NCBI GenBank assembly: GCA_964639275.1
Contig: CAZXCQ010000001.1
Span: 10,243-74,242 of the forward strand
Direction of reading: 5' to 3'
From: an uncultured Desulfobacteraceae bacterium
Lineage (GTDB): Bacteria > Desulfobacterota > DSM-4660 > Desulfatiglandales > Desulfatiglandaceae
Length of the DNA: 64,000 nucleotides
The position numbers were made by a program, and so were the translations under genes. Of the stretch, positions 33,683 through 57,066 are shown in pieces. Under the pieces are notes generated by a model that had not been told where the DNA came from, searched no databases, and saw only the letters and a program-made list of their open reading frames with translations. Position 1 is the stretch's first letter; the number at the start of each line of letters is the position of its first letter.

Positions 33683-33697
33683 TGGCACGCCTGTTGC
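33683..33697 (+). promoter_or_regulatory. Sigma54 (-24/-12) promoter
   Basis: TGGCAC-gcctg-TTGC is an exact match to the TGGCAC-N5-TTGC consensus. It lies 68 nt upstream of GTG 33765 and directly downstream of a sigma54 activator gene. Confidence 0.75.
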
Positions 33698-34229: not shown

Positions 34230-34239
34230 GGAGAAAGAG

Positions 34240-36141: not shown

Positions 36142-36153
36142 AGAGGTGATAAC

Positions 36154-36379
36154 CGTTCACGGGTTCAAAGGTTCAGGGGTTCAAAGTCGATTCTCGTCCC
36201 CTTATTCCATTCAGGAGGCGTATTCACATGAGAAGCGTGCGGATTTGTCATTCCCAATCTGAAAATTGGCGGCGCATTGGTAAGTATGTGGGAAAGCCAG
36301 CATGTCTTGCAAGGACTTGCGGTCTTCAATTTTGTCTTTGTCCCTAACCCTGAACGTTGAACCCAGAACCTGTGAACCC
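36154..36379. repeat. Intergenic element: inverted arrays of GGTTCA-type units flanking a ~150-nt core
   Basis: Left arm is gttcacgggttcaaaggttcaggggttcaaag. The reverse complement of the right arm is gggttcacaggttctgggttcaacgttcaggg. Confidence 0.6.
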
Positions 36380-36396
36380 TTACGAGAGGTGTTATT

Positions 36397-37035
36397 ATGA
36401 GTAGGAAAAAAGCGACGGAAAACGGTTCCATCCATTTCACCATCGACGGCAAGAAGGTTGAGGCCCGGGCGGGATGGACCGTGCTGGAGACCGCAAGGCA
36501 CTATGGGATCAACATTCCCACACTTTGTTACCACGAGGCCTTAAAGCCGAGCGGCGCTTGCAGACTCTGTGTGGTTGAGGCAAGGGAGGGGGATTGGTCC
36601 AGGGTCGTCATATCTTGCATGTATCCAGCCCGGGAAGGTATCGAGATACAGACTGATTCAGTGCGAGTAAAAAACGTGCGCCGCTGGATCCTTGAGCTGC
36701 TTCTGGCAGAATGCCCTGCTTCGAAGGAAATCAAGGCCCTGGCAGCCGAATACGGCGTCGATACCACCCGCTTCAATATAAAGGATCAGGAAGAGGAGTG
36801 CATTCTATGCGGCCTGTGTGTGCGGGCATGCGAGGAAATTGTTGGGGTCAGGGCCATATCATTTGGTTCAAGGGGTGTGGACAAACATGTGGCTACGCCC
36901 TTTATGATACCCAATAAGGCATGTATCGCCTGTGGGACGTGCGTTTTAGTCTGTCCCACTGGTGCGATGCAGGCCCGTCTGGACAAGGTCCGCGGTGATA
37001 TCTCAGGGCGCACCGGACATGGCTTTGCCCATTAA
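36397..37035 (+). CDS. NuoG N-terminal-like [2Fe-2S]/2x[4Fe-4S] ferredoxin subunit
   Basis: FTIDGKKVEA..GWTVLETARHYGINIPTLCYHE...GACRLCVVE, then CILCGLCVRACEE and CIACGTCVLVCP. Confidence 0.8.
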   Translation: MSRKKATENGSIHFTIDGKKVEARAGWTVLETARHYGINIPTLCYHEALKPSGACRLCVVEAREGDWSRVVISCMYPAREGIEIQTDSVRVKNVRRWILELLLAECPASKEIKALAAEYGVDTTRFNIKDQEEECILCGLCVRACEEIVGVRAISFGSRGVDKHVATPFMIPNKACIACGTCVLVCPTGAMQARLDKVRGDISGRTGHGFAH

Positions 37036-37047
37036 AGGAGGTCCAAA

Positions 37048-39495
37048 ATGGAACATATCATAAATAAAGAAAAAGGTGAGCAAGCAAGAATCGGCGTATT
37101 CCTCTGCGAATGCGGCGGAAAAATTGGGGCCAGGGTCGATCTAAGCCATCTTGAGCAAATTATGGGCCATGATCCCGTGGTCAGTCGTGTGCAAACCCTC
37201 CCGTTTCCTTGCATAACCCCCGGTCTTGGAGAAGTCAAAAAGACCATATCCGACAATGGCCTCAATCGGGTCGTTATTGCCGGCTGTGAATACCGCACCA
37301 TGATCAAAAAGTTCGGAAGAGAGCTGGAGGGACTGGGCCTGGAGGAGGGACAAATAGACATGGTCAACCTCCGAGACCATGTCGCGGCCGTAAATGGTAG
37401 AGGTCCGTCTGAACTTGCCGAGAAGGGGGCAAAACTCATCAAGGCATCTTTGGCCGGATTAGAGGCGTTGCTTCCCTCGCCAAAGGTGAAGGTTGAATTC
37501 AATGGTCCTGTTATGATTTTGGGGGGTGGCTTGGCAACCTACTCGGCCGCTCAGGAACTTTCTCGTCAAGGCATCGAGACGGTTATTGCGGTTCAAACCG
37601 AGGAGATCGAAGACGAAATCAGAATGCTCCATGAACGCTACCCGGGGGAGCGCCGAAGCCATGAGCGGCTTATGGAGATAATGAAGGAGGTCGAGGAAAG
37701 TCCTCATGTCAAAAAGATCTCAGTGGGAGAACTGGAAAAGGTGCTGGGTGTAGTCGGGAACTATACCGTGGTCTTTTCTTCAGAGGTTGATAAACCGCAG
37801 AAGGTCTACACCGTGGGCGCCATCATTGCCGCCCTGGATGGCGAGATGCACAATCAGGGAACTGACTTTGGGCACGATGGAAAAAGGGTCCTCTGCCATA
37901 CAGAAATGGAAGAGCATATCTGGCTCCACGGGGTTCCGGGTCATCGAGTCGTCTTTTGGATCAATGACCTGGAAACCGATAGACCCTATGCTTCACTCTC
38001 CGCAAGAACCGCATGGAATATGGCGACCTATTTCCGTAAAAAGAACGTTCAATGCCAAACATCGATCTTATACAATGAAAAAATCGACCTGCCCTTGAGC
38101 GGTGCAGAGCGAAGAAGGGCCAGGCAATTGGGTATCAAATGGATTCCCTATGATGGTAGCGTGAGACCCGCAGTCCAGAAAGGCTATATCACCTACAATG
38201 AGCCTGAGACGCAGATCGAAAGGGAGCTGTCCTGGGATCAACTGGTCATTTCCCCCAAAAGGCATCCGGGGATCGAACAGATCAAAGTTGCGAAAATCCT
38301 CGGCCTGCACGTGCACGGGGAGGAATTCCTTGAAAGAAATCCACAAATGGTGCGACCGGAACAGGTCGGGATCGACGAAAAATATCTGGCAGGTTCGGCG
38401 CGCCGGCCCTGCGACCTGCGGGAGTCATTGCGGCAGGGACGTCGTGCAGCCCAAAAGACGGCAGAGATCGCTCGACGCGCTTTAGCCGGTGAGCTTTATG
38501 CCCCGAGGATGGTTTGCACCGTGGACCAGAGCAAGTGCAACGGGTGCGGGCTCTGTCGCGAGATTTGTGATTGCGGCGGCATTGCGCCGGTTGACGGTCT
38601 TGGCGGGAACATCCCCCGTGTTGTGGATCCCATGGCTTGTACAGGAGGAGGGACCTGCGCGGCAGCTTGCCCCAACAGTGCCCTGGTCCTGCTCAACAAC
38701 ACCACGGCCCAACGAGAGGCGAGAGTGGCCGCATTGGCCTCCAGCCTGGCAGCCAATGAAGTCATGGGGTACGGGTGTAGCTGGGGCGGGGCGGCCGCGG
38801 CCGATCATGCGGGACTAAAGGGCATGAAATATAGCGAGCGGTTTTATCTGCTCCCCATCGGTTGTATCGGCCAGCTGGATCCGACAGTCCTGGGGAGGGC
38901 CTTTCTGGAAGGGGCTAGCGGACTCATCCTTATCGGGTGCCCCACCGAGGAGTGTCATCATAGTTATGGTCTCGACCATACCTGGAGTCGTGTCCTCCTC
39001 GTCAAAAAGCTCCTTTCCCTTGTCGGGTTGGAGCGAGACCGCATTGCCCTGGCCCACACCGACCTGAACAAGCCGGAACAATACATCAAGACCGTCAACA
39101 GTTTTGTGGGCCTAATAAACCGGTTGGGGCCCATCCACCGGGACAGGGATATGAAAACAAAGCTCAGAGACATGTACGACACGCTCAAAAACCCCCGTAT
39201 TCGATGGGTGCTGGGGGCCAGCCTTCGTCGGCCGTGGGAAACCACATATCCGACGGATCAGAGAAATGCGCTGGCCTACGATGAAACCCTGTCCGATGTG
39301 GTTACGGAGGAATTCATCCGCACGAGAGTCATGAACCTTCTCAGGCATGAGTCTCAATTCCTTCACATAAACCAGATCACCCAGTCTCTAAACGAGGAAA
39401 AGCAGGAGGTTTTGACCTGCCTCAAGGAAATGACACGGGAAGGCATTGTTTCACGCATCTTTAAAGATCGTGTCCCCTATTACTTGATGCAGTAG
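37048..39495 (+). CDS. HdrA-like flavoprotein fused to an MvhD/FlpD domain
   Basis: RIGVFLCECGGKIG...RVVIAGCEY is the HdrA inserted-domain pattern. A GGGLATYSAA dinucleotide fold is present, then CNGCGLCREIC and CTGGGTCAAACP. The MvhD-like block is GYGCSWGG...YLLPIGCIGQLD...LILIGCPTEECHHSYG. Confidence 0.75.
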   Translation: MEHIINKEKGEQARIGVFLCECGGKIGARVDLSHLEQIMGHDPVVSRVQTLPFPCITPGLGEVKKTISDNGLNRVVIAGCEYRTMIKKFGRELEGLGLEEGQIDMVNLRDHVAAVNGRGPSELAEKGAKLIKASLAGLEALLPSPKVKVEFNGPVMILGGGLATYSAAQELSRQGIETVIAVQTEEIEDEIRMLHERYPGERRSHERLMEIMKEVEESPHVKKISVGELEKVLGVVGNYTVVFSSEVDKPQKVYTVGAIIAALDGEMHNQGTDFGHDGKRVLCHTEMEEHIWLHGVPGHRVVFWINDLETDRPYASLSARTAWNMATYFRKKNVQCQTSILYNEKIDLPLSGAERRRARQLGIKWIPYDGSVRPAVQKGYITYNEPETQIERELSWDQLVISPKRHPGIEQIKVAKILGLHVHGEEFLERNPQMVRPEQVGIDEKYLAGSARRPCDLRESLRQGRRAAQKTAEIARRALAGELYAPRMVCTVDQSKCNGCGLCREICDCGGIAPVDGLGGNIPRVVDPMACTGGGTCAAACPNSALVLLNNTTAQREARVAALASSLAANEVMGYGCSWGGAAAADHAGLKGMKYSERFYLLPIGCIGQLDPTVLGRAFLEGASGLILIGCPTEECHHSYGLDHTWSRVLLVKKLLSLVGLERDRIALAHTDLNKPEQYIKTVNSFVGLINRLGPIHRDRDMKTKLRDMYDTLKNPRIRWVLGASLRRPWETTYPTDQRNALAYDETLSDVVTEEFIRTRVMNLLRHESQFLHINQITQSLNEEKQEVLTCLKEMTREGIVSRIFKDRVPYYLMQ

Positions 39496-39591
39496 TCCTG
39501 CAAAGCCATATTACGACCAGACCCCGCCACCATATTTGCCCGTAGCAGTGGGGGCCTGACAATAAAAAATCGACCGAAACGGCCCCCTTGA

Positions 39592-40159: not shown

Positions 40160-40909
40160 CTATCTCAGACGCAGGTTAACCTTCCTGATGTGATTCTTAA
40201 AGACCCTCATCCCTCCCCCTTCACTGACAACGCGCAACACCTCCCGAGGTCTGGTCACAACAACGCCGGATAGAAGTGTCACGGGTGTCTCTTTGAATGC
40301 TTCGGAGACCAGGGGCGTAGAAGCACCCAGCAGCACAACCTCCCGGCAAGAAACAGTCGCATCAAGGATACGGTCAATCGTATGATTAACGATTGATGTT
40401 GAGGTGATCAGGGCCACCTGGCAGTGCGGCAGGTGGTTATAAGCCTCGCTTTCGGGCAATATATCCCCCTCTGGCCTGTCGATCTGCTCAAATATCTTCA
40501 GAGAGGAGGTCCTTTTCCGCAACTCCGAAACCATGGGTGCAAAATACCCGACCATCCCCGCCCTGTCATCTGGGCCAAGCCTGAGATGTCTAAGGACATC
40601 CCCTTCAACAAACCCCTCTCTTGTTGTGTTTGAAATGGCATTGGCGGTGGCCAGCGCAACCGCCAATTCAACCTTGTGGGTTGAGTCAAACAGGGTGAGC
40701 AATCCAGTGGCCTTTTTCCCTGCCAGTGGGCCCAGGTCTCTCAGGCCACCGCACCCTCCCGTTGCGTCCCTGTGAAAGGTAAATGCAAGGCCCACCTGAC
40801 CATTATCCAGATGCACTGCCGTGTATCTCAAGCCGATACGGACGTCTATTACACATAGATCTTCTGCCGCAGTGATAGCCAGTTCCTTAAGTCGCTCTGA
40901 TATATGCAT
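40160..40909 (-). CDS. DUF4213/DUF364 family protein (Rossmann-like, putative metal/cofactor handling)
   Basis: The N-terminus (VIDVRIGLRYTAVHLDNGQVGLAFTF) and C-terminus (VALITSTSIVNHTID...VVLLGASTPL) follow the pattern typical of DUF4213+DUF364 proteins. Confidence 0.65.
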   Translation of the reverse strand: MHISERLKELAITAAEDLCVIDVRIGLRYTAVHLDNGQVGLAFTFHRDATGGCGGLRDLGPLAGKKATGLLTLFDSTHKVELAVALATANAISNTTREGFVEGDVLRHLRLGPDDRAGMVGYFAPMVSELRKRTSSLKIFEQIDRPEGDILPESEAYNHLPHCQVALITSTSIVNHTIDRILDATVSCREVVLLGASTPLVSEAFKETPVTLLSGVVVTRPREVLRVVSEGGGMRVFKNHIRKVNLRLR

Positions 40910-41224
40910 AAATTCCTTTCTGCGCCAAGGGTACTGTCGAACCCTGGGAGTTTCTTCCTATTGCCCATATCTTGCCATTCGCAGTCAAAATGTGCAAGAT
41001 TTTGTGCTCTATTGTGTTGAACTTGAGGTTCTAGAGTTCCCTCGTCATGCCGGAGTTGATCCGGCTAGGCGGTTCAATCAGTTGTCTCTCCTCCCGGAAA
41101 TTTCCCCTTAAACTAGCCATTGCAAGGGGAGGTAAGGCTTGTAAGTCCTTCTTAGAACTCCTCGTAATCAAGAGGGGGTCCTACCAGAAAGATCGCCTAT
41201 CTTAATTGTGTGTATGCGTGAGGC

Positions 41225-43264
41225 TCAGAGTTTTGTGATCCTCACGCAAGCCACTTTAAATTCTGGAATCTTGGCCAGAGGGTCGAACGCCTCTGCATTG
41301 GTGAGTATGTTTGTTGGGCTTTCCCCAAAGTGAATGGGCAGAAAAACCATTCCTGGTTTCACAGATGTTGTCACTCGTGCGGGAACCTCCATCTCACCTC
41401 TCCGGGATGAAACAAGAAGAATATCTCCGTCCTTAACACCCGTTGCCCGCGCATCCTCCGGATTGATGTCCACATATCCCGTCGTCTGCTCGACGTCGAG
41501 ATGAGGGGATATCCTTGTCATGGTTCCGGTGTGGAAATGGGCAAACATCCGGCCTGTAGTCATGGAAACCGCGTATTTGGCATCTGGGCTTTCTGCCGGG
41601 GATTGATAATGGATAGCATGGAATTTTCCCTTTCCGCCTGCAAATCGGTCTTTGTGAAGATAGGGAGTTCCGGGGTGATCAATACTGGGACAAGGCCACA
41701 TCAGCCCATTGATCCCCAACCTTTCATAGGTCATGCCCCCATAGTGCCTCTGATTCAGGCTGGCCATTTCGAGAAAAATCTCTTCGGGGTCTCTATATAC
41801 CATTTCATAGCCCATGGCCGTAGAGAGTTTGCAGATAATCTCCCAGTCAGGGAGTGCCTCTCCGATCGGTTCAATGGCTTTATTCACCTTCATGCATCGG
41901 CGCTCCGAGTTTGTGAATGTCCCTTCCTTTTCGGCAGCCGAGGCCGCTGGAAACACCACATGTGCGACCTGGGCCGTCTCTGAGAGAAAGAGATCCTGAA
42001 CAACCAAGAGATCAAGGTGTTTCATGGCATGATTGAGATGGTTCCAGTCGGGATCACTCAGCTTCGGGTTCTCACCGATTACATACAGGGCCTTCAACTG
42101 ACCTTCTAGCATGGCCGCGACCATCTCGGTAATGGTCAGTCCGACCCTTTCCGGAATTCTCTTGCCCCAGGCCCTGGAGAATCTCTCGTTTACCTCCGGA
42201 TCGATGACAGGCTGATATCCTGGCAGTACGTTGGGAAGCCCGCCCATATCACACGCCCCCTGGACATTGTTCTGTCCTCTTAAGGGATTAACACCCCCGC
42301 TCGGTATACCCACATACCCGCAGAGCAGGGCCAGATTGCAACAGGACTTGACGTTGTCCACACCCGTTGTGTGCTGGGTGATGCCCATGGCATAGAGCAA
42401 GGAGCCCGGAGGATTATTGGCATAGAGATCAGCCATCCGATAAATGTCCCTTGGGCGGACATCCGTAATGGCCTCTACCTTTTGAGGGCTGTAATCCTCC
42501 AGAACTTTTTGGAATTCAGCGAAATCCTCAGTCCTCTCTTTAATATAGTCCTTTGCCTGCCAGTCATTTTGAATGATGACATACATTATCCCGTTGAGCA
42601 GGGCGACATCAGTGCCGAGACGGTGTTGCACGGCGATATCCGCAAACTGTGCCAGGTGTATATTTCTTGGATCGGCTACAATCAACTTGGCACCCTTCTC
42701 TTTGGCCCGGATGATGCGGCGTGCGATTAAGGGATGGCATGCTGTGGTATTAGAACCGGTGACAAAAATGCAACCGGCATCCTCAATCTCGGAGATAGAA
42801 TTGGTCATCGCTCCGCTGCCAAATGCGGCGACAAGACCTGCCACCGTGGAGGAATGTCAGAGACGGGCACAGTGATCCACATTGTTGGTGCCGATGACAG
42901 CCCTGGCAAACTTCTGGGCAAGATAGTTCTCTTCATTGGTCATTTTGGCTGATACCAGGACCCCGACGCTATCCGGGCCACTTTTTTTGACGATTTCCTT
43001 TAGCCTCTCGGAGGCAAAATGGATGGCCTTATCCCACGTGGCCTGACGAAATCTCCCGTTCATTTTGATAAGGGGTGATTTGAGGCGCATGGGGCTGTTT
43101 ATGTATTCGTGAAGTTGCCAGCCTTTGATACACAGTTTTCCTTCATTAACGGGATGGGTCTTCAAGGGCATGGTGCCACCAAGCTTCCCATTAATGACCA
43201 GGAAAAGGACACCGCAGCCTGTCCCGCAGTAAGAACAGACAGATGGGACTATTTTGCTATCCAT
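41225..43264 (-). CDS. fdhA: Formate dehydrogenase catalytic subunit (molybdo/tungstopterin), selenocysteine-containing; joins two track ORFs
   Basis: The N-terminal CSYCGTGC...C motif indicates a [4Fe-4S] site. The in-frame TGA at 42857-42859 gives [30 protein letters not shown], the canonical FdhH/FdhA Sec context. ATG 43264 follows GAGGTG. No Tat signal is present. Confidence 0.9.
42857..42859 (-). other. UGA selenocysteine codon of fdhA
   Basis: See the CDS entry. A hairpin, GGUGGC-AGGUCUU-GUCGCC (42827-42845), starts 11 nt downstream and has a GGUC-containing loop. Confidence 0.85.
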
Positions 43265-43587
43265 TTTTCTCACCTCATTGCGTCAATCACAGATACCCGA
43301 CAGCATCAAGATCCATTTTGTTGACTACAGCCCGTATTCCGCAAAATTGTCTTCTGACCTTGCAAGTGTATGGAATCATTGTGTGTTGTTCGCTCATATT
43401 TATGGGCTATAGTTTCCAGTAGATTGGAAACATATTGCTATTTCAATATGTTACAAATCTGCTTTCCAGAATACGGGCTACAGGAGAAAATGGTATCATC
43501 ATTGGAAAGGTCTGTTTCTCAATCCATGATTGGGAATGGGATAAAAAATCTCCTGGGTCAGGACCTGTTTCAATTCCGATACCTCGT

Positions 43588-44394
43588 TCATGCTGGCTTC
43601 AGCGCTCTCATCTGCAATGTGACCTCATCACCCAAAATATTAAACGGCGATGGTGTTGAATCGATACCAGCCCTGTAATCAAACACATCCGCAACGATTT
43701 GATTCACCATCTTGTAAAGAAATCGCAACGGAATATCCATTGGGCAGGCATCTTCACACAGACCACAGTCAATGCACCTACCCGCCATATGAACCGCTCG
43801 AACAAGATGAAAAATAGGCACTTCGACGGGGAGGTCCCCATTCCTTATGAGCGAATGGTGCTCAAGGCTGCACTCCTTGCAGAAGCATACAGGGCAAGAA
43901 TCCCTGCACCCATAACATTTGATGCACTTTTTGAATTCATATGCCCATCGCTTAAACCGCTCCTGCCGCCCCCATGTTTTGGCCTCTTGCATATCTATGT
44001 TCTTGTCTATCCCCACCTTCTTTTTATAGAGCCCTGTCTTTTCCGGACTCATAAATGAACAATCGGGCGGGCTGGTAAGCCTGGAAGGGCAGCAGTTTAC
44101 GGGAATCGCCGCTATATTATCTGGTGAGAGCTGCTTCCAAACAAAAAGGACATTCAGTGCTCGCTGGTTGCAGTCGCGAACGAGGAGCCCTACTCTTATT
44201 CCAGGTTCTTCTTCAGTCAGCGTAAGGGCTATCTTTTCAAGGGGGTAGCGGGCGGGCCCAGTAATAAGCCCATCCACTTCTTCTATCTTATCCTTTACAA
44301 AAAAATGGGGGAGAGGATGCCCATCCACCATCTTATAGCCTAGAAAGAGATCCACTTTCCCCTCCCTGAGCAACCGTTTCACTCGGTCCTTCAT
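43588..44394 (-). CDS. Iron-sulfur protein (2x[4Fe-4S]-type Cys clusters), FrhB/FdhB-like electron-transfer subunit
   Basis: CIKCYGCRDSCPVCFCKEC and CIDCGLCEDACP are present. The start lies 2 nt from the mvhD stop. Confidence 0.55.
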   Translation of the reverse strand: MKDRVKRLLREGKVDLFLGYKMVDGHPLPHFFVKDKIEEVDGLITGPARYPLEKIALTLTEEEPGIRVGLLVRDCNQRALNVLFVWKQLSPDNIAAIPVNCCPSRLTSPPDCSFMSPEKTGLYKKKVGIDKNIDMQEAKTWGRQERFKRWAYEFKKCIKCYGCRDSCPVCFCKECSLEHHSLIRNGDLPVEVPIFHLVRAVHMAGRCIDCGLCEDACPMDIPLRFLYKMVNQIVADVFDYRAGIDSTPSPFNILGDEVTLQMRALKPA

Positions 44395-44395
44395 T

Positions 44396-44878
44396 TCAAC
44401 CTCCTTGGGCGGCTGTCTTTTGGTTTGGAGGCATCTCTGGGATCATTGCCAGGGGTAGATCCTGCTTTCCAGAAAGCGGATTGGGACCCAGGTGCCTTAT
44501 TTTTTCGGTAAAATCGGTGACCACCTGGACAAATTTTTGGGCCTCTGCCGATGAGATCCACTCCAGATGCAAACGGTCCTCCAGTCCGATTAGTGCTAAC
44601 AATTCCTGAAGAAAAGTGATCCTCTTGATCGTCATGTAGTTACCATACAGGTAATGGCAGTCTCCGACATGTCACCCGCCCACTAGGATGCCGTCAGCCC
44701 CGCTCTGAAAGGCCCTCAGGATATAGTGAGGCGATACCGTGGCCGAGCACATGACACGGATGGAACGAATGTTGGGCGGATATTGCAACCGGCTCACACC
44801 GGCCAGATCCGCCGCACCATAGGCGCACCAGTTACACATGAAAGCAATGATCCTGGGTTCGAAAAGCGCATTCTCCAT
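44396..44878 (-). CDS. mvhD: MvhD (methyl-viologen-reducing hydrogenase delta subunit family), selenocysteine-containing; joins two track ORFs
   Basis: [16 protein letters not shown]...[20 protein letters not shown]. The TGA at 44672-44674 replaces the first Cys of the conserved GCxxGDCHY motif. The start could be ATG 44878 or 44884. Confidence 0.85.
44672..44674 (-). other. UGA selenocysteine codon of mvhD
   Basis: In-frame TGA. The downstream frame continues [17 protein letters not shown] into track ORF 44396-44635. Confidence 0.8.
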
Positions 44879-44899
44879 TTCCATCTCCTTATCTGATGA

Positions 44900-47800
44900 T
44901 TAGGGCAGTGCACTTCCAATCTGGGCATAGATCTCTTCTCTGTCAAATCCCATCAGGGATATGGCCTCCGAAGGACAGGTTGCTGAACAGGCCCCACAGC
45001 CCTTGCACATCGCCTCATTCACCACTCCTATGCTCCTTTCAGGATCAAATGTGATGGCACCGTACGGACATACATTGAGGCACCCGAAGCATCCGGAGCA
45101 GAGTTCGGGCACGATATGGGCGATAGTTCCTCCGACCTGAATACTCTCCCTGGACAGAATCGTGATAGCGTGGGATGCGGCCGCCTTGGCCTGTGCGATG
45201 CTCTCGTCAACAGGTTTGGGATAATGTCCCATACCACAGAGGAAGATGCCATCATTAGGAAAGTCCACCGGCCTCAGCTTTTGGTGTGCCTCCAGAAGCC
45301 AGCCGTCTTTGTCTACGGGTATTTTAAACAATTGAGCAAGGCTCCGGTCCTTGTGAGACACAATTGCCGTTGCCAAACAGAGAATGTCTGCCTCAACCGC
45401 AATTGCGCGATCAAGGATCGGATCTCTGAACTCGATCAGGATCTTTTCTCCGGCCGGCTCAACAACAGGCCTTTCATCAGGGGAATAGCGGAAGAAAAGG
45501 ACACCGATTTTCCTTGCCTCCCGGTAGAGGTCCTCCCTTTTTCCGTAAGCCCTTATATCCCTATACAGGATATAGACATTGGCCTTCCTGTTCCTGCGCT
45601 TGACCTCCACGGCACTTACCAGAGAATGGGTACAACAGACCTTTGAGCAATAGGGATTCTCGTCAGTCCTTGATCCAACACATTGAATAAACATGATATT
45701 TTCGATCTGATCCAATCGGCGATCCTGACTCATGAGTAGCTGATCCAGCTCCAGATGAGTCATGACAGCGTCATGTTCCCCATAGAGATATTCCTTTGGC
45801 CTGTACTCTTCAGCACCGGTTGCAAGGATGGTGACGCCGTGTTCTATCATCGTTTCTCTAGCGCTGCTGGCCAATTTGGTTTCAAAGTTACCCACGAAAC
45901 CGTCGACTTGCATAATTTCAGCACCCAGATAAACGGTTATCCGTTTTTCATTTTCCACTTTTTGTATAATTCTGTTTACATGAGGGACAAATTCCTCGCC
46001 TTTATATGATTTATACAGCCGCAGGGCATTTCCACCAAGAGAGCCCGACCGCTCCACAAGATGTACGGGATAGCCTTGCCGTGCTATCGAAAGGGCGGCC
46101 GTCATCCCCGCGATTCCACCCCCTACGACAAGGGCATCCCGGCTGACAGGAAGATCCGTCTCCTTCAACGGGCTGAGGAGGACTGTCTTGGCCACAGCCA
46201 TTCGGATCAGGTCTTTCGCCTTCTCTGTAGCGGCCTTTGGATCGATCGAGTGGACCCAGGAATCCTGATTCCTGATGTTGGCCATCTCAAAAAGATACTT
46301 GTTCAGGCCCGCATTCATCAAAGTCTCCTGAAAAAGGCCTTCATGAGTCCGTGGAGAACAGGCAGCCACGACCACGCGGTTTAGACCCTCCTCCTTTATT
46401 ATCTCCGTCATCCTTTCCTGAGTGTCCTGCGAACAGGTAAAAAGGTTTTCTGCCACATACACCACTCGGGGGAGGGTCTTTGCATATTCTACGACCTGCG
46501 GGACGTCAACCACTCCGCGAATGTTTATCCCGCAGTTACAGACAAAAACGCCTATCCGGGGAGGCTCCCTTGTCACCTCTCTTTCGGGTGGTCTCTCAAG
46601 AGTCCTTGTTCGGGTGTAACGGGCAGGGGCCAGGCATTCTGTGGCGGCACAGGCGGCAGCACTGGCCTCCGTGACCGAAACGGGGATGTCCTTGGGGCCG
46701 GTAAAGGTACCGCAGACATAGATGCCGGGTACGGAGGTAGTTACTGGATCAAAGGTATCCGTATACGCAAAATGATAGTGATCCATATCAACACCGAGGC
46801 GATTTGCGAGCTCAACAACGTTCTCGTCCGTTTCAAGACCCGTAGAAAGGACCACCATATTGAAGATCTCTTCATCTACTCTCCCATCTTCCCTCACATA
46901 CCGAATGAGAAGATCATCTGTGCCCGACACGGGGCACAAAGAGTGGACCCGTGACCGGATAAATCGGACACCATCCTTTTTGGCCTTTTCATAATACCGA
47001 TCAAAGTCCTTTCCATGGCTACGGATATCCATATAGAAGATAACACAGTCCAGAGCTCCACGGATGTGTTCCAAGGCAAGGGTACTTTGTTTAATGGCAT
47101 ACATGCAGCAGACTGAGGAGCAGTACCCATTATCACAGCGGTTCATCTCTCTCGATCCGACGCATTGAAGCCAGGCAATTTTCTGGGGGTCCTTCCGGTC
47201 CGAAGGTCTTATAAGGTGCCCCATAGACGGTCCGGTTGCAGATAGAATTCGCTCAAATTCAATAGCGGTTAGCACATTAGGCAGGTTGGTGTACGAGTAT
47301 GCCTCATAGGGGGTGGGGTCAAATGGTTTCAAACCCGGTGCCAGGATGATAGATCCCACGTCTATAATGATCTCTTTTTCGGCATCATCAAAATCTATGG
47401 CGCCTGCCGGGCAAAACTTCTCACACGCCCTGCACCTGCCCTTCTTAAAATAGATACAGTTCTGCTGATCAATAACATATTTGAGAGGCACTGTCTGCGA
47501 GTAAGGAATATAAATTGCCTTTCGCTTTTTCAGCTTTTCATTGTAACGATCGTCCACCTCCTTCGGGCATTTTTCTGCGCAGATTCCACAGGCGATGCAC
47601 TTATCAAGATCTACAAAACGCGGGCGCTGAGAGACGGTGACCCTAAAATGGCCCTCTTTTCCCAATAGTCGTTTTACCTCACTCAGAGTGAGCAGCTGAA
47701 TATTAATATGCCTGCCGACCTCGACAAGTCTTGGGGCAAGAATTCACATGGAACAATCATTGGTCGGAAAGGTCTTGTCCAGCTGGGCCATAACCCCGCC

Positions 47801-47938
47801 GATCCCTGGAGACCTCTCCACCAGGTAGACGTAATACCCTGCGTTCGCAATATCAAGAGCGGCTTGCATGCCCGAAATCCCGGCGCCAACGACCATGACA
47901 GCGCCTTGCAGTTCTTTATCCGTATGAATCTTGTTCAT
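44900..47938 (-). CDS. hdrA: Heterodisulfide reductase subunit A-like flavoprotein (long form, ~1012 aa), selenocysteine-containing; joins two track ORFs
   Basis: [15 protein letters not shown]...[24 protein letters not shown] at 47744-47746. Several 4Fe-4S Cys motifs are present, plus the [13 protein letters not shown] inserted domain and a second [14 protein letters not shown] fold. Confidence 0.9.
47744..47746 (-). other. UGA selenocysteine codon of hdrA
   Basis: In-frame TGA within the conserved DCSxC/U motif. Candidate hairpin CUUGUC-GAGGUC-GGCAGG at 47711-47728. Confidence 0.8.
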
Positions 47939-48115
47939 TAGAAGACCCCCGTTTCAATACAACCCGTCCAGAGACACGAGTCGCTAGGAAGATATCCCGA
48001 CTTCGCAGAATAGTTTTCGGTTGCTGAACATTCTCCAAAATCTAGTCGGGAACACTTTCTCTTTGCATCAACTTCTTTGGCCCCTCTCGTTTCAGTGTCA
48101 CACCAGAGGAAAGGC

Positions 48116-48799
48116 CTACCATGCCTCCCTCTCCAGGCGTTTGAAGATGAACATGAGCTGCTTTTGAGTCAGTTCCCCCACATTTTCGTTAATCCACTTC
48201 AGGTCACCCGAAAGGATAGCTGCCCTGGCCTCACTCGAGAGCTGGTATTCTCGGAGGACCTCGGGCCCGTTCTCCGCCAATTCAGTCCAGAATGCCTGGT
48301 CCTCATAAGTTCTGTCCAGGACCCGGATCACTTCGCGTTTCTGAATGAGTCTCCCTTCATTTGTCTCTGTAAGAAATCTCTCTGTGGCATCCTTCTCGCG
48401 TTTCTTTAGGGCATCATCCACAGCTGCCAGGAAATCATCATCGGTAAAAGGCTTACGAAGATATTCCGAGACCCCAATCTTCGCCGATTCCACGGCTGAT
48501 GAGACAGATGGATATCCCGTGATAATAACGATATTTGTCTCGGGTCGTTCTTGTTTGATCTTTCGGATCACATCCATACCATCAATGTCCGGCAGGCGGA
48601 GATCGGCGACAACGAGGTCAAAGCCATTGCCCCTAAATGTCTTGAGTGCCTCTATTCCCGTCATGGCCACATCTACACCATACCCCTCTTCCGAAAGGAC
48701 CATCTTAAGCCCATTGGCCACACTGAGCTCGTCTTCCACCAAGAGAACATGGTGTGGATGAACACTTGTCTCCCCCCTGACTGCTTGAAGTGCGCCCAT
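48116..48799 (-). CDS. Response regulator receiver protein with an unassigned ~100-aa C-terminal domain
   Basis: VLLVEDE...DLVVADLRLPDIDG...LRKPF matches the receiver pattern. The C-terminal region (...REYQLSSEARAAILSGDLKWINENVGELT...) is not a recognisable DNA-binding or AAA+ domain. Confidence 0.8.
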   Translation of the reverse strand: MGALQAVRGETSVHPHHVLLVEDELSVANGLKMVLSEEGYGVDVAMTGIEALKTFRGNGFDLVVADLRLPDIDGMDVIRKIKQERPETNIVIITGYPSVSSAVESAKIGVSEYLRKPFTDDDFLAAVDDALKKREKDATERFLTETNEGRLIQKREVIRVLDRTYEDQAFWTELAENGPEVLREYQLSSEARAAILSGDLKWINENVGELTQKQLMFIFKRLEREAW

Positions 48800-48878
48800 A
48801 CCTATACCTCCTTTCTAGCAAAAACCTTCCCTGAATTGGCCCGACTTTATTGGTAAAAGAACAATATTCCTTTCTTAC

Positions 48879-48893
48879 GCAATTTATGTTCCA
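48879..48893 (-). promoter_or_regulatory. Sigma54 promoter candidate
   Basis: The minus strand reads TGGAAC-ataaa-TTGC (GG-N10-GC spacing is correct). It lies ~80 nt upstream of ATG 48799. Confidence 0.5.
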
Positions 48894-49283
48894 ATACCCA
48901 CGCTTTTCGGCAGCAGGCGGTTATCATATTTTTCCCTTTATTATCGATAAGTTAACACAGCCGGTGAAAAAACGAGTGAGGCATCGGATATAGAAATGTA
49001 TAAGATCCAATACGCCTATTTTGGGTTCGAGATTGAAATGATTTGACAAATCAATATGTTATTTACGTATGATCATTTATACGGTAAGGAGGACATTTGG
49101 AGAGAATTGGAGGGTCATTCCACCATTTCATGAGTCCATGATCGAGGCAAGCATACATGCCGCATAGAATATCCATCCAATCACTTGTCCCATTTCCGAG
49201 ATCCTGGATTAGAACGCAATTTTTTCTTGGAAATTAGAGAAAAGAGGAATAAGATAGAAAAACAGGTTACATAAGGGCGTTTT

Positions 49284-50504
49284 ATGGAGAACACACAGAA
49301 AATCGAATGTATGAATTGCATCTTCCGGGATATCAGTCCCTCGGTATACGCCTGTACACGGGTCAAGGATGTGGGAGAAAAGTTGATAAACAGAGTGACG
49401 GATCTCCTAGGTGCCAAAGGTGCCATTGTCCGAACTTTGAACCCTGAAACGAATCATCTCGATTTGGTCCTTTGCTATGGTCTGAGCGAACAATATATAT
49501 CTAAGGGACCTGTTTTTTTGGAAAAAGCCATCCACGATCTGCACCAGCAGAGTGAAATTAGCATCATAACGAACATCCTTGGAGATCCGCGCATTCAATA
49601 TCCAGATATGGCATGGAAGGAAGGGGTCCGGATGGCAGTCGATGCCCCCCTCTTCTTTCGTGGCACGACCGTAGGACTGATGCGCATTTACTTTGATAAA
49701 CAAAGGGAACTTTCTACTGAGGAACTCAAATTCCTGCAACTGAAATCTCGTGAGGCCGCCTGTGCCATTGAAAAGGCCGGAATCCTGGAAAAGCAGAGGC
49801 GGCATTACGAAAGCCTGTCTCGCCAGACCGAAAAATTGTCAGCCCTCGGTCGATTATCCGCGGGTATCGCCCATGAGATCAACAACCCCCTGGCTGGGAT
49901 TTTGCTTTACAGTTCGAACCTGATCAAAAAGGTGCCAGAGGGAAGTCCCCTAAGGGAAGGACTGCAAGTCATCATTAATGAAACCAAGAGATGTAAGACA
50001 ATTATTCAGGATCTTTTAGAATTCTCCAGAACAAGCGAACCCCAAAAAGAGTTGGCGAATATCAACGAAGTCATCGAAAACGCCTTATCTATCCTTGGAA
50101 ATGAGTTCCGTCTCCAACATATCCGGCTTGAAAAACAGTTATCCGGTGATATGGTGGAACTCTTCATTGATAAAAAACAGATCCAACAGGTCTTTATCAA
50201 TATTCTCCTTAACGCTATTCAGGCCACGGAGAATGAAGGCACCGTTACCATCAGAAGCTCGATTATCTCACACCGGAAGCAGGTTAGTGTAGAGGTCTCA
50301 GACTCTGGATGTGGCATTCAGGAAGATGATCTTCCTAGAGTATTCGATCCATTTTTCTCCACCAAGACAGATGGTACAGGCCTGGGATTGGCCGTAAGCT
50401 ACAGCATCATCCAGAATCACAGTGCGAATATTCAAGTTTCTAGTGAACCTGGCAAGGGGACATGCGTTACCATAGACTTCCCTGTTCATAGTGGTCCCCG
50501 GTAA
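49284..50504 (+). CDS. GAF-domain sensor histidine kinase (cytoplasmic)
   Basis: H-box AHEINNPLAGI, N-box ILLNAIQA, G-boxes DSGCGI and GTGLGLAVS. Confidence 0.85.
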   Translation: MENTQKIECMNCIFRDISPSVYACTRVKDVGEKLINRVTDLLGAKGAIVRTLNPETNHLDLVLCYGLSEQYISKGPVFLEKAIHDLHQQSEISIITNILGDPRIQYPDMAWKEGVRMAVDAPLFFRGTTVGLMRIYFDKQRELSTEELKFLQLKSREAACAIEKAGILEKQRRHYESLSRQTEKLSALGRLSAGIAHEINNPLAGILLYSSNLIKKVPEGSPLREGLQVIINETKRCKTIIQDLLEFSRTSEPQKELANINEVIENALSILGNEFRLQHIRLEKQLSGDMVELFIDKKQIQQVFINILLNAIQATENEGTVTIRSSIISHRKQVSVEVSDSGCGIQEDDLPRVFDPFFSTKTDGTGLGLAVSYSIIQNHSANIQVSSEPGKGTCVTIDFPVHSGPR

Positions 50505-50516: not shown

Positions 50517-51932
50517 ATGGAACAGACGAAAAACGCCCATATCCTCGTCATTGACGATGAACAGGTCATATGCGACGGATGTCGTTTGGTCTTATCCGAC
50601 AAAGACCATGCTGTGGACATCTGCATGAGTGGAAAGGCGGGACTCAAAGCGCTCCAGGAAAACGCATATGATCTTGTCCTATTGGACATGAAATTACCCG
50701 ACATGGATGGGATGGCTATCCTTGACACATTTCGGAACAGAAAAACTGATATGTACTTCATCGTCATGACCGGTTATTCGACTGTTCAAAATGCGGTGGA
50801 AGCCATGAAGTTGGGCGCCTTTGATTATCTCTCCAAGCCTTTCACGGATGACGAGCTTGTACTTGCCGTAGAGAAGGCCCTTGATAAGAAGCGCCTGGTC
50901 GAGGAAAATCTATTTCTCAGAAAAGAGCTTGTTGAACGCTTTGGCTTTGACAATATTATCGGAACGAACCCTAAAATCCTGGAGATATTTGCCCAAATTG
51001 AGAAGTTGGCCCCATCTGATGCAACAGTAATCATCTATGGAGAAAGTGGAACAGGCAAGGAACTCTTTGCCAAGGCCATCCATGGCCATGGCCGCCGTTC
51101 GACCCGTCAGTTCGTGGCTGTGGACTGCAGTACCCTCTCTCCTACACTCTTGGAGAGTGAGTTGTTTGGACACGTGAGGGGGGCATTCACGGGCGCCTAT
51201 AAAGACAAGTCCGGCATCTTTGAGGTGGCCAAGGGCGGGACCCTTTTTATGGATGATGTGACAAACCTGAGCATGGAGGTCCAGGGAAAGCTTCTGAGAG
51301 TGCTTGAGACGGGCGAGTACAAACCTGTAGGTGCAAGCCAGTTCAAAAAGACGGATGTGAGGATTATTACTGCAACCAATAAAGACCTGAAGACCATGGT
51401 GAAAGAAGGAGACTTCAGGGAGGACCTCTTCTACCGGTTGAATGTCTTTCCGATCTATCTGCCTCCTCTTAGGGAGAGAAAGGACGACATACCCAAGCTT
51501 CTCTACTACTTTCTGAGACGTTTTTGCCGCAAGACAGGAAAAAAGCTCCAGGGTTTTTCCGACGATGCGCTTGAGACCTTGGTGAATTACCACTGGCCAG
51601 GCAATGTGCGACAGCTCAAGAATGTGGTTGAACGGCTGGTCATCATGGCCGATAGCCGTACCATGGACTCACTCGATCTTATGGATTGCCTACCCATGAA
51701 ACAAGCTTGGAATGGGTTCCCCGTACCGGAAACCCTCGAAGAGCTCCATGCAATCAAGAAACATATCCTTGAGGAATATTTCGGGCAAGTCCAGAAGGCC
51801 TTTCTGCTTAAGGCTCTCAAGGCATGCAACGGTAATATTACCCGCGCAGCCGAAAGGGTCGGTATGAAGAGGCCCAACTTCCACACCTTAATGAAAAGAC
51901 ATAATGTTACCTATCAAAAGGCCAAGGCCTAA
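50517..51932 (+). CDS. NtrC-family sigma54-dependent response regulator (REC-AAA+-HTH)
   Basis: ILVIDDE...DLVLLDMKLPDMDG, GESGTGKE, GAFTGA, and C-terminal ITRAAERVGMKRPNFHTLMKR. Confidence 0.9.
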   Translation: MEQTKNAHILVIDDEQVICDGCRLVLSDKDHAVDICMSGKAGLKALQENAYDLVLLDMKLPDMDGMAILDTFRNRKTDMYFIVMTGYSTVQNAVEAMKLGAFDYLSKPFTDDELVLAVEKALDKKRLVEENLFLRKELVERFGFDNIIGTNPKILEIFAQIEKLAPSDATVIIYGESGTGKELFAKAIHGHGRRSTRQFVAVDCSTLSPTLLESELFGHVRGAFTGAYKDKSGIFEVAKGGTLFMDDVTNLSMEVQGKLLRVLETGEYKPVGASQFKKTDVRIITATNKDLKTMVKEGDFREDLFYRLNVFPIYLPPLRERKDDIPKLLYYFLRRFCRKTGKKLQGFSDDALETLVNYHWPGNVRQLKNVVERLVIMADSRTMDSLDLMDCLPMKQAWNGFPVPETLEELHAIKKHILEEYFGQVQKAFLLKALKACNGNITRAAERVGMKRPNFHTLMKRHNVTYQKAKA

Positions 51933-52288
51933 ATGATAACAGGTCTTGTTTTGTGGGTGGTAATACTAGGAAATTTGGTGGTGTATCTCAATGACATAGA
52001 TACCCTACCCTATGGTGTTGTGGCGTTAGTTCCATATTCTCTGTGTCCATCCGGACTCTGGCATAGAAATAAGCGGATGTAAGATACTATGCCTCTTCCA
52101 CTATTGTAAGCGTCTTTGAATCCTTCAGCCCCTCACTAAGATAGTAAGAAAGTGCTTTTCGGGAGATATGGCTTGACTCTCCGGATTCATGTGGTGTTTT
52201 TTTGTCCTGTTGCTTCTGTGGCCTTGCTGGTGTATGCTAAAAGGCAGACAAGGGATTGCAATTATGAGCTATTGTGAGGAGAATTCGC

Positions 52289-53833
52289 ATGGCCGAAGAG
52301 GGCAAGGCAATTGATCGCGATGCCCAGAAATCTTCCCTCAAGCTTGTTATTGTAGGGGGGGGTAAAGACTGTAAACGATTCCTGGAGCTTTTTGAGCTTC
52401 TGAAGAGTGAATCACTCCCTTATATGGATATCAAACTGGTAGGCGTCTGCGACATTGATCCCGAAGCCGAAGGACTTCGTCTGGCTCGGCAGATGGGGAT
52501 TTACACCACAAACGATTTTCGGGATCTTTTCAAGATCAAAGACCTCGATGGCGTAATTGAACTCACAACAGGCAAAGATGTCCTCCTCGAGCTTATAAGG
52601 CACAGGCCAACAGGTGTGGGGGTTCTGGAGCACAATGTCAGCCGATTACTAATGAATCTGTTAATAACCAATCAGAATTTACAGGCTGCGAAACGACAGG
52701 TTGCCATTGAGAAAGGGGCTACAGATTTTCTCATCCAGCAGGCCAACGAAAGGATTGTGGTCTTGAAACCGGATTTCACGATTGTAGACGCCAATGAGGC
52801 CTATCTGGAGGCGGTAACCAGGTTTAAACACGAGGTGATAGGTGCCAATTGTTATGAAGTCACCCACGGTCTCAGTGCCCCCTGCTCCAGGTCTCAACCA
52901 GGGCTCGAATGTCCTCTGGCAATCACCTTAAAAACCGGGGAATCGGCTCAGGTGATTCATGAACATACGATCTCCAGTGATCTCGTAATCTACTGTGATA
53001 TGGCCACATATCCCGTGAAGGACCAGAAGGGTGAAATCGTTCGGGTCATCGAGGTGTGGCGGGATATCACTGAAGAGCTTTCGTACCGATGGGAAAGACG
53101 AGCAAGGGCGCTCAAGGCTGACCTTAAGAAACTCGTCCAGGAAGACCGATTGATCTCGCTGGGGAAGCTCGTGGCCAGTAGCGTCCATGAGATCAACAAT
53201 CCTATCCAGGGACTGCTGACATTTAGCCACCTCATGAAGGAAATCCTGGATGGGGGTGAGCCGGACTCGCAAGATTTGAAGAAGTTCCGCGACTACCTTT
53301 CTCTCATGTCCAGGGAACTGGAGAGATGCGGTGGAATTGTCTCCGGCCTCCTGTCCTTTTCTCGGGCCTCCTCAACGGAGTTCAAGGACGTTGACCTCAA
53401 TGAAATCCTGACGCAGGTCATCGCCCTGACCCGGCACAGGATAGAACTCCAGAATATCCATTTGAACACAGAATTCTCCTTACGACCGCTAATCATCTAC
53501 GGGGATCCAAATCAGTTGCAACAATGCTTTCTCAACCTGATCTTCAACGCTATTGAAGCCATGCCCGGCGGGGGCCAGCTGAGTATAAATTCCAATCTGG
53601 ACAGCTCCCGCGGGCATGCCCAAATAACCATAGCGGATACGGGATGCGGGATAGAGGAAGAAGACTTGGACCACGTGTTTGATCCCTTTTTCACCACCAA
53701 GGAGGAAGGTGAAGGGACGGGACTCGGGCTATCCATAGTGCACGGGGTGGTCAAGGGGCACAAGGGAGATATCAGGGTGAAGAGCAAGGTGGGCGAAGGG
53801 AGTTCCTTTGTTTTGGATTTTCCTGTAGGCTAG
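52289..53833 (+). CDS. Sensor histidine kinase with an N-terminal Rossmann-like domain and a Cys-motif PAS domain
   Basis: KLVIVGGGKDCKRFL...VGVCDIDPEAEG resembles a dinucleotide-binding fold. PAS domain carries NCYEVTHGLSAPC...ECP. HEINNPIQG and GTGLGLSIV are present. An alternative GTG start is at 52274. Confidence 0.85.
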   Translation: MAEEGKAIDRDAQKSSLKLVIVGGGKDCKRFLELFELLKSESLPYMDIKLVGVCDIDPEAEGLRLARQMGIYTTNDFRDLFKIKDLDGVIELTTGKDVLLELIRHRPTGVGVLEHNVSRLLMNLLITNQNLQAAKRQVAIEKGATDFLIQQANERIVVLKPDFTIVDANEAYLEAVTRFKHEVIGANCYEVTHGLSAPCSRSQPGLECPLAITLKTGESAQVIHEHTISSDLVIYCDMATYPVKDQKGEIVRVIEVWRDITEELSYRWERRARALKADLKKLVQEDRLISLGKLVASSVHEINNPIQGLLTFSHLMKEILDGGEPDSQDLKKFRDYLSLMSRELERCGGIVSGLLSFSRASSTEFKDVDLNEILTQVIALTRHRIELQNIHLNTEFSLRPLIIYGDPNQLQQCFLNLIFNAIEAMPGGGQLSINSNLDSSRGHAQITIADTGCGIEEEDLDHVFDPFFTTKEEGEGTGLGLSIVHGVVKGHKGDIRVKSKVGEGSSFVLDFPVG

Positions 53834-53862
53834 TGGTTGGCAACGTATGGGGGAGGAGTGCA

Positions 53863-57051: not shown

Positions 57052-57066
57052 GCAACGGGTGTGCCA
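57052..57066 (-). promoter_or_regulatory. Sigma54 promoter
   Basis: The minus strand reads TGGCAC-acccg-TTGC, an exact consensus match, ~215 nt upstream of ATG 56836. Confidence 0.6.

Follow-up and report, generated by a model that had tools for sequence, protein, structure and literature searches.

A putative sigma54-controlled operon joining a selenocysteine-containing formate dehydrogenase to a tandem HdrA in an uncultured Desulfobacteraceae bacterium

A 64-kb stretch of contig CAZXCQ010000001.1 (assembly GCA_964639275.1), from an uncultured Desulfobacteraceae bacterium, was analysed whole and is called the window here; it carries an operon whose genes all lie on the minus strand. These encode a response regulator (RR), the flavoprotein HdrA, the adaptor MvhD, an iron-sulfur (Fe-S) protein related to the FdhB subunit of formate dehydrogenase (FDH), here fdhB', and, after a gap, the FDH alpha subunit FdhA, with an in-frame UGA codon in hdrA, mvhD and fdhA. 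An earlier reading of the DNA, made from the letters alone (the original prediction), had proposed this order, and every part was found in its place (Table 1). FDHs of this HdrA-linked, cytoplasmic kind are believed to complete the Wood-Ljungdahl pathway of complete-oxidising and autotrophic sulfate reducers, and which redox partners they use has been a question since 2009. The locus adds no new enzyme type. It presents a defined regulatory unit, made up of a kinase, an NtrC-type activator, two GTATA-N6-TATAC sites, an integration host factor (IHF) site and a sigma54 promoter, and with this unit comes an RR output domain that recurs on FdhA and on the formate channel FocA; unit and domain together are the part worth following.

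Table 1. Positions in the window of the operon, its control elements and the neighbouring genes (UAS, upstream activator site; MITE, miniature inverted-repeat transposable element)
Feature	Position	Strand	Basis
RR, 227 aa	48116-48799	-	open reading frame call, ATG at 48799
hdrA, 1012 aa, tandem (BamE-type)	44900-47938	-	family scan and alignment to solved HdrA chains
mvhD (FlpD family), 162 aa	44396-44884	-	PF02662, 176.4 bits
fdhB', truncated fdhB homologue, 268 aa	43588-44394	-	profile against solved FdhB chains
fdhA, 679 aa, Mo/W-bisPGD FDH alpha subunit	41225-43264	-	TIGR01591
HdrA selenocysteine codon, U65	47744-47746	-	in-frame TGA
MvhD selenocysteine codon, U71	44672-44674	-	in-frame TGA
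FdhA selenocysteine codon, U136	42857-42859	-	in-frame TGA
hdrA SECIS-like hairpin, 7-bp stem, loop AGGU, starts 18 nt after UGA	47711-47728	-	conservation
mvhD SECIS-like hairpin AUUACC-UGUAU-GGUAAU	44639-44655	-	conservation
fdhA candidate SECIS	42804-42862	-	Rfam SECIS_3
MITE, 147 bp, terminal inverted repeats	43331-43477	-	repeat copies, target duplication, empty site
sigma54-type -24/-12 promoter TGGAAC-N5-TTGC (TGGAACATAAATTGC), ~80 nt before RR start codon	48879-48893	-	motif and orthologues
IHF-like site TAACTTATCGATA (consensus YAANNNNTTGATW, 1 mismatch), at -61	48942-48954	-	conservation
UAS2, GTATA-N6-TATAC (1 mismatch), ~-120	48998-49013	.	conserved inverted repeat
UAS1, GTATA-N6-TATAC (1 mismatch), ~-189 from -24 T	49067-49082	.	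conserved inverted repeat
Soluble GAF-HisKA-HATPase histidine kinase, divergent	49284-50504	+	Pfam
NtrC-type sigma54 activator (receiver, AAA+, HTH_8)	50517-51932	+	PF00158, 224 bits
DUF364/DUF4213 ('heavy-metal chelation') protein	40160-40909	-	Pfam, downstream of fdhA
Lone receiver, 142 aa	39719-40147	-	Pfam, downstream of DUF364 gene
Terminator-like site after 142-aa receiver gene	39572-39584		terminator scan
Canonical sigma54 motif TGGCAC-N5-TTGC (TGGCACGCCTGTTGC) of convergent operon	33683-33697	+	
NuoE-like protein, convergent operon	33765-34229	+	
NuoF-like protein, convergent operon	to 36141	+	
HoxU/NuoG-N-like protein, convergent operon	36397-37035	+	
815-aa HdrA-like/MvhD fusion, weak winged-helix-like C-terminus, convergent operon	37048-39495	+	

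The identity of the operon's parts leaves, in our judgement, very little room for doubt. FdhA scores 817.6 bits on TIGR01591 in a family scan, against a cut-off of 666.25. Its N-terminus reads MDSKIVPSV..., and because the Fe4S4 domain begins at residue 4 in a Pfam scan there is no room for a Tat signal; as judged from this N-terminus, the protein is cytoplasmic and without an export signal. HdrA matches the solved HdrA chain 8rvv_A (E 1.7e-173), and solved chains align to it in three pieces: the FAD domain with its inserted ferredoxin over residues 15-383, the HdrA N-terminal domain over residues 460-619, and the end of the FAD domain with the C-terminal ferredoxin over residues 833-1011. This alignment therefore marks it as a fused tandem HdrA, with a first thioredoxin-reductase-like domain (TrxR1, holding FAD, the inserted ferredoxin and the pair C62-x-x-U65), the HdrA N-domain, a second such domain (TrxR2) and a C-terminal ferredoxin in that order; Pyr_redox_2 matches twice along the chain, and residues 14-47 and 601-640 carry FAD-binding motifs.

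The Fe-S protein between mvhD and fdhA had been called FrhB/FdhB-like, which stands in so far as its profile matches the F420-type FdhB chains 9t1s_M, 8rvu_E and 7bkb_E (E 2e-34 to 1e-28). The match takes in only the C-terminal ~105-125 residues (the two-cluster domain) and a short N-terminal stretch; at 268 residues, against 380-414 in the solved FdhB chains, and with no Pfam FrhB/FdhB domain, the protein is by these comparisons a truncated FdhB homologue. Its cysteines comprise those of the C-terminal 2x[4Fe-4S] domain and a further conserved set (C75, C101, C102 and C112). Clustered at 90%, the family comprises 1203 or more members, mainly from Desulfobacterota metagenomes, some of them named 'formate dehydrogenase beta' by JGI.

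Reading of the three UGA codons as selenocysteine (Sec), as originally predicted, is borne out by orthologous loci: the aligned codon is TGA in 61 of 62 loci for HdrA (TCC in the remaining one), in 75 of 77 for MvhD (TGT and TGC in the others) and in all 78 for FdhA. In HdrA the motif C62-S-M-U65 aligns with the DCSMC motif of Methanococcus maripaludis HdrA, which holds Sec197 (PMC13518236; this and the other cited sources are drawn on in the parts available). Comparative conservation was used to recognise candidate Sec insertion sequence (SECIS) elements, because single-sequence folds after the three UGAs are no better than those of shuffled sequences (z -0.18 to -0.27). Of 39 sequences, 38 show no change at synonymous sites in the hdrA hairpin; the exception is the window, where a compensatory G-C to U-A double change keeps the pair. 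The six stem pairs of the mvhD hairpin are fixed in 40-41 of 41 sequences. At the fdhA UGA, Rfam SECIS_3 scores 48.4 bits (E 7.8e-9), below its gathering score of 63; this was the only Rfam match at E<=1, with nothing in the gap or the leader and no match in hdrA or mvhD.

The same genome encodes Sec machinery, with tRNA-Sec predicted three times and selB matched twice above the cut-off, as well as rpoN. Among its paralogues, the HdrA motif has TGA in 9 of 13 rows and Cys in 2, MvhD has TGA in 5 of 12, and the FdhA paralogues (C33, C348) that share the HCARL-x-H active-site motif have TGA throughout. On this comparative evidence the triple Sec is the normal state of this operon type and no peculiarity of the window copy, and expression of the operon may, as originally predicted, depend strongly on selenium. 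As a side observation, three tRNA-Sec and two selB genes may come from two organisms or be true duplicates; the contamination of the bin is 5.87%.

As a kind, the operon is not new, because hdrA-mvhD-fdhB-fdhA loci with Sec were described in 2009; it is an ordinary copy, for Desulfobacterales, of a gene cluster already known from sulfate reducers. In Desulfobacterium autotrophicum HRM2 the hdrA/hdrL loci are each followed by mvhD, loci V and VI have, behind hdrA-mvhD, an fdhB with fdhA directly after it, and Sec occurs in HdrA1/2, in four mvhD and in four cytoplasmic fdhA genes (Strittmatter 2009, PMC2702500). Loci V and VI resemble the window in gene set and order, in the cytoplasmic FDH, in Sec in hdrA, mvhD and fdhA, in the absence of hdrBC and in phylum; the likeness is to the published description, HRM2 being outside the best 80 loci compared below. 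As far as PMC2702500 was covered, the RR, the sigma54/UAS architecture and the tandem HdrA are features of the window that it does not describe. The D. autotrophicum FdhA has also been placed at the base of 'bifurcating Fdh' (Poudel 2018, PMC6085437). The 'HdrBCA-MvhD-FdhBA' clusters of deep-sea Chloroflexi and of Desulfobacula toluolica Tol2 likewise place an FdhA with Sec and an Fe-S FdhB after hdrA and mvhD, and their product was proposed to be a formate-linked, bifurcating complex (Sewell 2017, PMC5736913); unlike the window, they carry hdrBC.

Two better-characterised systems bear on the enzyme itself. The methanogen FdhAB-MvhD-HdrABC complexes (M. maripaludis, M. hungatei 7BKB, Elp-Hdr) have FdhA, FdhB, MvhD and HdrA homologous to those of the window, with HdrA Sec197 at the matching position, and in them electrons run from FdhB/ElpB through MvhD to the FAD of HdrA (PMC12350162). 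The window differs in its fused tandem HdrA, in having neither HdrBC nor a heterodisulfide, in its bacterial host, and in an FdhB homologue of 268 rather than 380-414 residues that has no F420/FAD domain by Pfam. In the class II benzoyl-CoA reductase (BCRII) of Geobacter metallireducens, BamE is a fused HdrA dimer with two TrxR-like domains, of which the first FAD alone, beside the pair Cys59-Cys62, bifurcates, the second being non-bifurcating and structural, and the MvhD-like BamF carries Sec (bioRxiv 10.64898/2026.04.10.717634). Compared by description, BamE and BamF share with the window the fused HdrA dimer, the CxxC-type pair in the first TrxR domain and the Sec-type MvhD adaptor, whereas that system has a tungsten BamBC substrate module where the operon here has FdhAB and lacks BamD and BamGHI, and BamF is more than 100 residues longer than the window's MvhD.

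Relatives of the operon were collected with the FdhB-like profile at one genome per species, giving 581 confirmed stretches, of which the best 80 (L026-L105) were kept, a sample that leans to close relatives. The order HdrA-MvhD-FdhB'-FdhA holds where contigs reach, FdhA following FdhB' in 78 of the 80 and MvhD preceding it in as many. The region upstream of hdrA is readable in 57 loci, the other 23 being too short, and HdrB was sought there by tblastn. As in the window, two-component genes and an RR stand upstream in 40 of the 57 informative loci; in a further 11 NuoF/HoxU-type genes are fused to a split HdrA or lie beside it, 5 have an HdrB gene, and 1 has both NuoF/HoxU and HdrB. The absence of HdrB and HdrC from the locus, noted in the original prediction, agrees with zero CCG (HdrB) matches within the window, and the circumstance that was to overturn it, hdrBC consistently present in orthologous loci, was not what we found, with HdrB in only 6 of 57. 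At the level of gene content, the comparison shows the same FdhA-FdhB'-MvhD-HdrA core combined with nothing, with HdrBC or with NuoF/HoxU, and so reduces the number of candidates for the missing acceptor. With 39 CCG matches elsewhere in its genome and about ten large HdrA paralogues, this organism offers too many choices for an unlinked partner to be named. Cultured carriers of the operon, Desulfosarcina alkanivorans PL12 and Desulfopila sp. IMCC35006, make its expression, its selenium dependence and the complex testable.

Further pieces of this kind occur in the same genome. A second fdhB'-fdhA pair (C33:29020-31851), 46% and 56% identical and with Sec kept, runs to the end of its contig, and its FdhA alignment breaks between frames at residue 301, indicating a frameshift or an assembly error. 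Just past the end of the window (C1:75961-77288) lie another Sec-MvhD gene and a gene whose similarity to the FdhB homologue is confined to the C-terminal cluster domain.

Control of the operon can be followed in the same loci. The sigma54 promoter that had been proposed ahead of the RR from its motif is upheld by orthologues: when GG and GC are required, along with a match at 8 or more of the 10 positions and a distance of no more than 300 nt upstream, the -24/-12 motif precedes the RR in 32 of 38 loci, mostly 65-95 nt before the start codon, against 2 of 48 loci upstream of hdrA as a control, and the genome encodes rpoN (435.9 bits). The count of TGGNAC-N5-TTGC over the window (3 seen, 0.7 expected) is weak by itself. 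Upstream elements were surveyed in 33 regions, namely the 32 motif-bearing loci and the window, the six motif-less loci being left out. GTATA-N6-TATAC, with at most one mismatch, occurs in 32 of the 33 (200 shuffles: mean 1.5, maximum 6), its copies clustering at about -190 and -122 from the -24 T, and the window as a whole has 4 matches where 0.22 are expected. A match to the IHF-like consensus YAANNNNTTGATW lies at -60 to -64 in 16 of the 33 regions, and at any position in 21 (shuffles: mean 6.3, maximum 13). The palindrome TTATCGATAA remarked upon at 48941-48950 does sit there; it is no separate operator, however, for it overlaps this conserved IHF-like site, and we read it as the IHF-like site of a classical UAS-IHF-sigma54 promoter.

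Sigma54 promoters of the NtrC family have upstream activator sites, an IHF bend between and GG-N10-GC elements, and the window resembles them in its two dyads 100-200 bp upstream, the IHF-like site between and the adjacent activator gene. The two GTATA-N6-TATAC repeats are likely to be sites for the NtrC-type activator; as far as our literature searches reached, neither this dyad nor its link to FDH operons has been described. The kinase is syntenic with the operon, as part of a two-component set, in 40 of the 57 informative loci, and a terminator scan found no terminator-like site between the RR and hdrA. From this comparative evidence we regard the proposed regulation as likely. Two further ideas were dropped: a metal or Fe-S sensor function of the kinase, whose N-terminal Cys residues are unconserved in 36 orthologues, and a regulon shared with the neighbouring nuoEF operon, upstream of which GTATA-N6-TATAC sites are absent.

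We lean to the reading that the locus is a sigma54-controlled operon for a cytoplasmic, Sec-dependent FDH wired to an HdrA-type flavoprotein. The neighbouring kinase would phosphorylate the NtrC-type activator, which would bind the two GTATA-N6-TATAC repeats and fire sigma54 RNA polymerase, giving a single transcript from the RR through fdhA, across an inserted MITE. FdhA (Sec136, Mo/W) would oxidise formate or reduce CO2, and electrons would pass by way of the Fe-S clusters of the truncated FdhB and the Fe-S domains of HdrA to the [2Fe-2S] cluster of MvhD, to which Sec71 is adjacent, and on to the FAD of the first TrxR-like domain of HdrA with its Cys62/Sec65 pair. We propose this path because of homology to the solved methanogen Fdh/Elp-MvhD-Hdr complexes and to BamEF. 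The flavin would most likely bifurcate, one electron going to ferredoxin and one to a higher-potential acceptor encoded outside the operon, a place that sister operons fill with NuoF/HoxU (NAD+) or HdrBC; by analogy with those systems, flavin-based bifurcation by the tandem HdrA seems to us an evenly balanced call.

Several observations weigh against this reading. Genes for HdrBC, NuoF or any other high-potential module are missing from the operon, which leaves no visible second acceptor, and we know of no purification of such an Hdr-Fdh complex from a bacterium. No RNA sequencing run was listed as containing the stretch. HdrA is a strong match to the NCBIfam HdrA models yet stays below the cut-off (955 against 1100), while Pfam finds in fdhB' only 4Fe-4S domains, and some 110-145 residues of the F420/FAD part are missing from it. 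The -24 element is TGGAAC rather than TGGCAC, and the UGAs are followed by the unremarkable single-sequence folds reported above. Finally, the MITE folds strongly as RNA (-46.3 kcal/mol, z -4.4) and a weak terminator-like hairpin lies in the gap at 43551-43563, either of which could uncouple fdhA.

One alternative holds that nothing bifurcates, HdrA and MvhD serving as an Fe-S/flavin wire in a plain formate:ferredoxin oxidoreductase or a ferredoxin-dependent Wood-Ljungdahl CO2 reductase. The potential of CO2/formate is close to that of ferredoxin. A second acceptor module is absent from the operon in 40 of the 57 informative loci, the window included, and there is precedent for a non-bifurcating, structural flavin in the second FAD of BamE (bioRxiv 10.64898/2026.04.10.717634). 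Two traits of bifurcating HdrA, the CxxC/U pair and the inserted ferredoxin, are nevertheless retained in the first TrxR domain, and the HdrB or NuoF/HoxU found on the same core in sister operons fits a third redox partner; on balance we hold the wire to be unlikely.

The adjacency of the Hdr-Fdh operon and a nuoE/F-like operon in the window suggests another arrangement, in which the products of the two, the latter being the convergent operon at 33765-39495, would form one two-module machine that, much like BCRII, links a formate dehydrogenase/CO2 reductase to NADH and ferredoxin. BCRII indeed couples a HydBC-like module to a BamE-type module (bioRxiv 10.64898/2026.04.10.717634), and NuoF/HoxU genes stand within the Hdr-Fdh operon in 12 of 57 loci. 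The neighbour, however, has its own canonical sigma54 motif and no GTATA-N6-TATAC site, and in none of the 80 related loci does its 815-aa fusion protein occur within 8 kb, which shows the adjacency to be unconserved; we give such a machine a low probability. Upstream of the convergent operon, ATATGTCA-type repeats stand instead of the GTATA dyad.

A further alternative makes fdhA a separate transcription unit, with a terminator, a promoter or both in the gap before it. That gap is long, 314 nt as first reported if fdhA starts at the GTG at 43273 and 323 nt from the ATG at 43264, a start we prefer because 78 orthologues align from there, and it contains, besides the terminator-like hairpin mentioned above, a sigma70-like match at 43495-43522. 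The length stands, but the gap is no conserved regulatory region; we attribute it to insertion of a MITE because a relative about 95% identical over the operon (a contig of the independent metagenome run X2) lacks the element, with 25 other letters in place of window positions 43328-43508, because a 6-bp target duplication, CTGTAG, flanks it here (43478-43483 and 43325-43330), and because the draft genome holds 22 copies of at least 120 nt. An exact 6-bp duplication flanks 16 of the 19 copies listed. The insertion accounts for 153 nt of the gap (147 nt and one 6-nt duplication). The median gap length across 78 orthologous loci is 58 nt (range -1 to 374, below 45 nt in 36), which fits co-transcription as the ancestral state. 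The internal promoter that had been suspected in the gap (43274-43587) found no backing, as the sigma70 and terminator scans gave no more sites than shuffled sequences, and an independent fdhA unit seems improbable. The MITE family has ~12-bp terminal inverted repeats (CCCGTATTCCGG...) and target duplications that are mostly AT-rich.

That the in-frame TGAs are true stops in split or decayed genes is next to impossible: translation with table 11 does cut each of the three genes in two, yet TGA stands at the identical codon in nearly all orthologues, the MvhD exceptions being Cys codons, and conserved hairpins behind the UGAs accompany the Sec machinery of the genome.

The RR combines a receiver, in which E22, D23, D66, T94 and K116 are conserved, with a helical C-terminal domain of 82 residues (~146-227) that is more conserved than the receiver among orthologues. 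Beyond the receiver there is no Pfam match, a PDB sequence profile search with the domain stayed short of significance (best E 0.14), and no match of use came from the ESM Atlas. Modelled in isolation, the domain has five helices (pLDDT 87.9), and in structural comparison it comes closest, over 77 residues each, to DesB in its LigA-like part (Z 8.9) and to LigA (Z 8.4), followed by SonA in its NHLP-type leader (Z 6.3) and by Os1348 (Z 4.0); the next unrelated chain reaches Z 4.5. Matches of all these strengths can arise by chance between helical folds. Foldseek returned the same families without significance (probability 0.91, E 0.77). A LigA/Os1348-like five-helix fold is thus predicted from the model. 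For the sequence family NF038399 the cut-off is 40 bits: 14 of 20 short relatives score 16.6-34.2 bits and one fusion protein (P0139) 43.8, and NF038399 is not among the best 25 of 104 families listed for the window's RR. The likeness to LigA (protocatechuate 4,5-dioxygenase), Os1348 and the NHLP leaders is thus one of fold, whereas the RR domain has no significant PDB or Pfam sequence match; and while LigA-type domains sit with a dioxygenase or with the precursor of a ribosomally synthesised and post-translationally modified peptide, here the domain is attached to a receiver, FdhA or FocA.

A profile search of 1.84 billion representatives found the domain in 241 proteins, many of 70-145 residues (some of them fragments) and about 20 of RR size. 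Fusions join it to the formate channel FocA (P0266), to a ShyB/AsrA-like Fe-S protein (P0139) and to GcvH (P0146). In the phylum it is present in 36 of 401 sampled genomes, 7 of which have a second copy as the C-terminus of an NAD-type FdhA of ~980 residues, a domain-bearing form that makes up 42 protein clusters. This larger FdhA belongs to an operon that begins with the kinase, activator and RR seen in the window and shares its sigma54 and GTATA-N6-TATAC sites; one two-component module heads two kinds of cytoplasmic FDH operon. Among 23 loci around domain matches, 15 hold focA or an FdhA at least 50% identical to the window's; of the other 8, two end in hdrA at a contig end, two give a weak match to FdhA or HoxU and four have nothing of the kind. 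Related genomes not being independent, we take this gene-neighbourhood link of the domain to FDH and focA as a strong lead and not as a statistic. Neither the fold of the RR domain and its fusion to FdhA or FocA nor the sharing of one two-component module by two kinds of FDH operon was met in the literature searched, outside which lay figures S10 and S11 of PMC10553843 and the supplement of PMC2702500.

A tentative reading, which we think doubtful enough to be offered only as a possibility, is that the domain is a dedicated formate-metabolism module acting at the protein level. Because its copies sit at the C-terminus of NAD-type FdhA and of a FocA channel, and on RRs beside Hdr-linked FDH, NuoF-linked FDH or focA, the phosphorylated RR might dock onto the enzyme or channel, or sense formate for it, adding post-translational control on top of the sigma54 switch; kinase, NtrC-type activator, GTATA-N6-TATAC sites and RR domain would then make up an undescribed formate regulon of Desulfobacterota. 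A docking prediction that paired the core of a Cys-type FdhA from genome G090 with the RR C-domain of that genome scored 0.01, which speaks neither for nor against binding.

Two other settings of the domain were seen. In three genomes of other families (L121, L122 and L124) a kinase, a receiver, the domain-bearing RR, a second receiver and focA stand in a row; there is no sigma54 activator, and the RR is the sole regulator with an output domain. In the genome of the window itself (C95:1688-4696, L108), this C-domain also occurs in a paralogous RR, 37% identical, behind which an sCache/HAMP histidine kinase and a lone receiver are encoded, with an HdrD-like CCG protein and an acetyl-CoA synthetase nearby.

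Downstream of fdhA, the DUF364/DUF4213 gene and the gene for the 142-aa receiver are absent from all 80 related loci; it is uncertain whether they belong to the operon, and a link of the former to Mo/W or Se handling would be a guess. The 315-nt gap between fdhA and the DUF364 gene contains at ~41020-41065 a repeat of ~45 nt, a second, repetitive extragenic palindromic (REP)-like element, of which 17 or more other contigs have copies 82-100% identical to it. On the other side of the operon, a second pair of a PAS histidine kinase and an NtrC-type regulator occupies 52274-55212 (+), and a third sigma54-like motif (TGGCACACCCGTTGC) is found at 57052-57066 (-), at the 5' end of the open reading frame 55895-57055.

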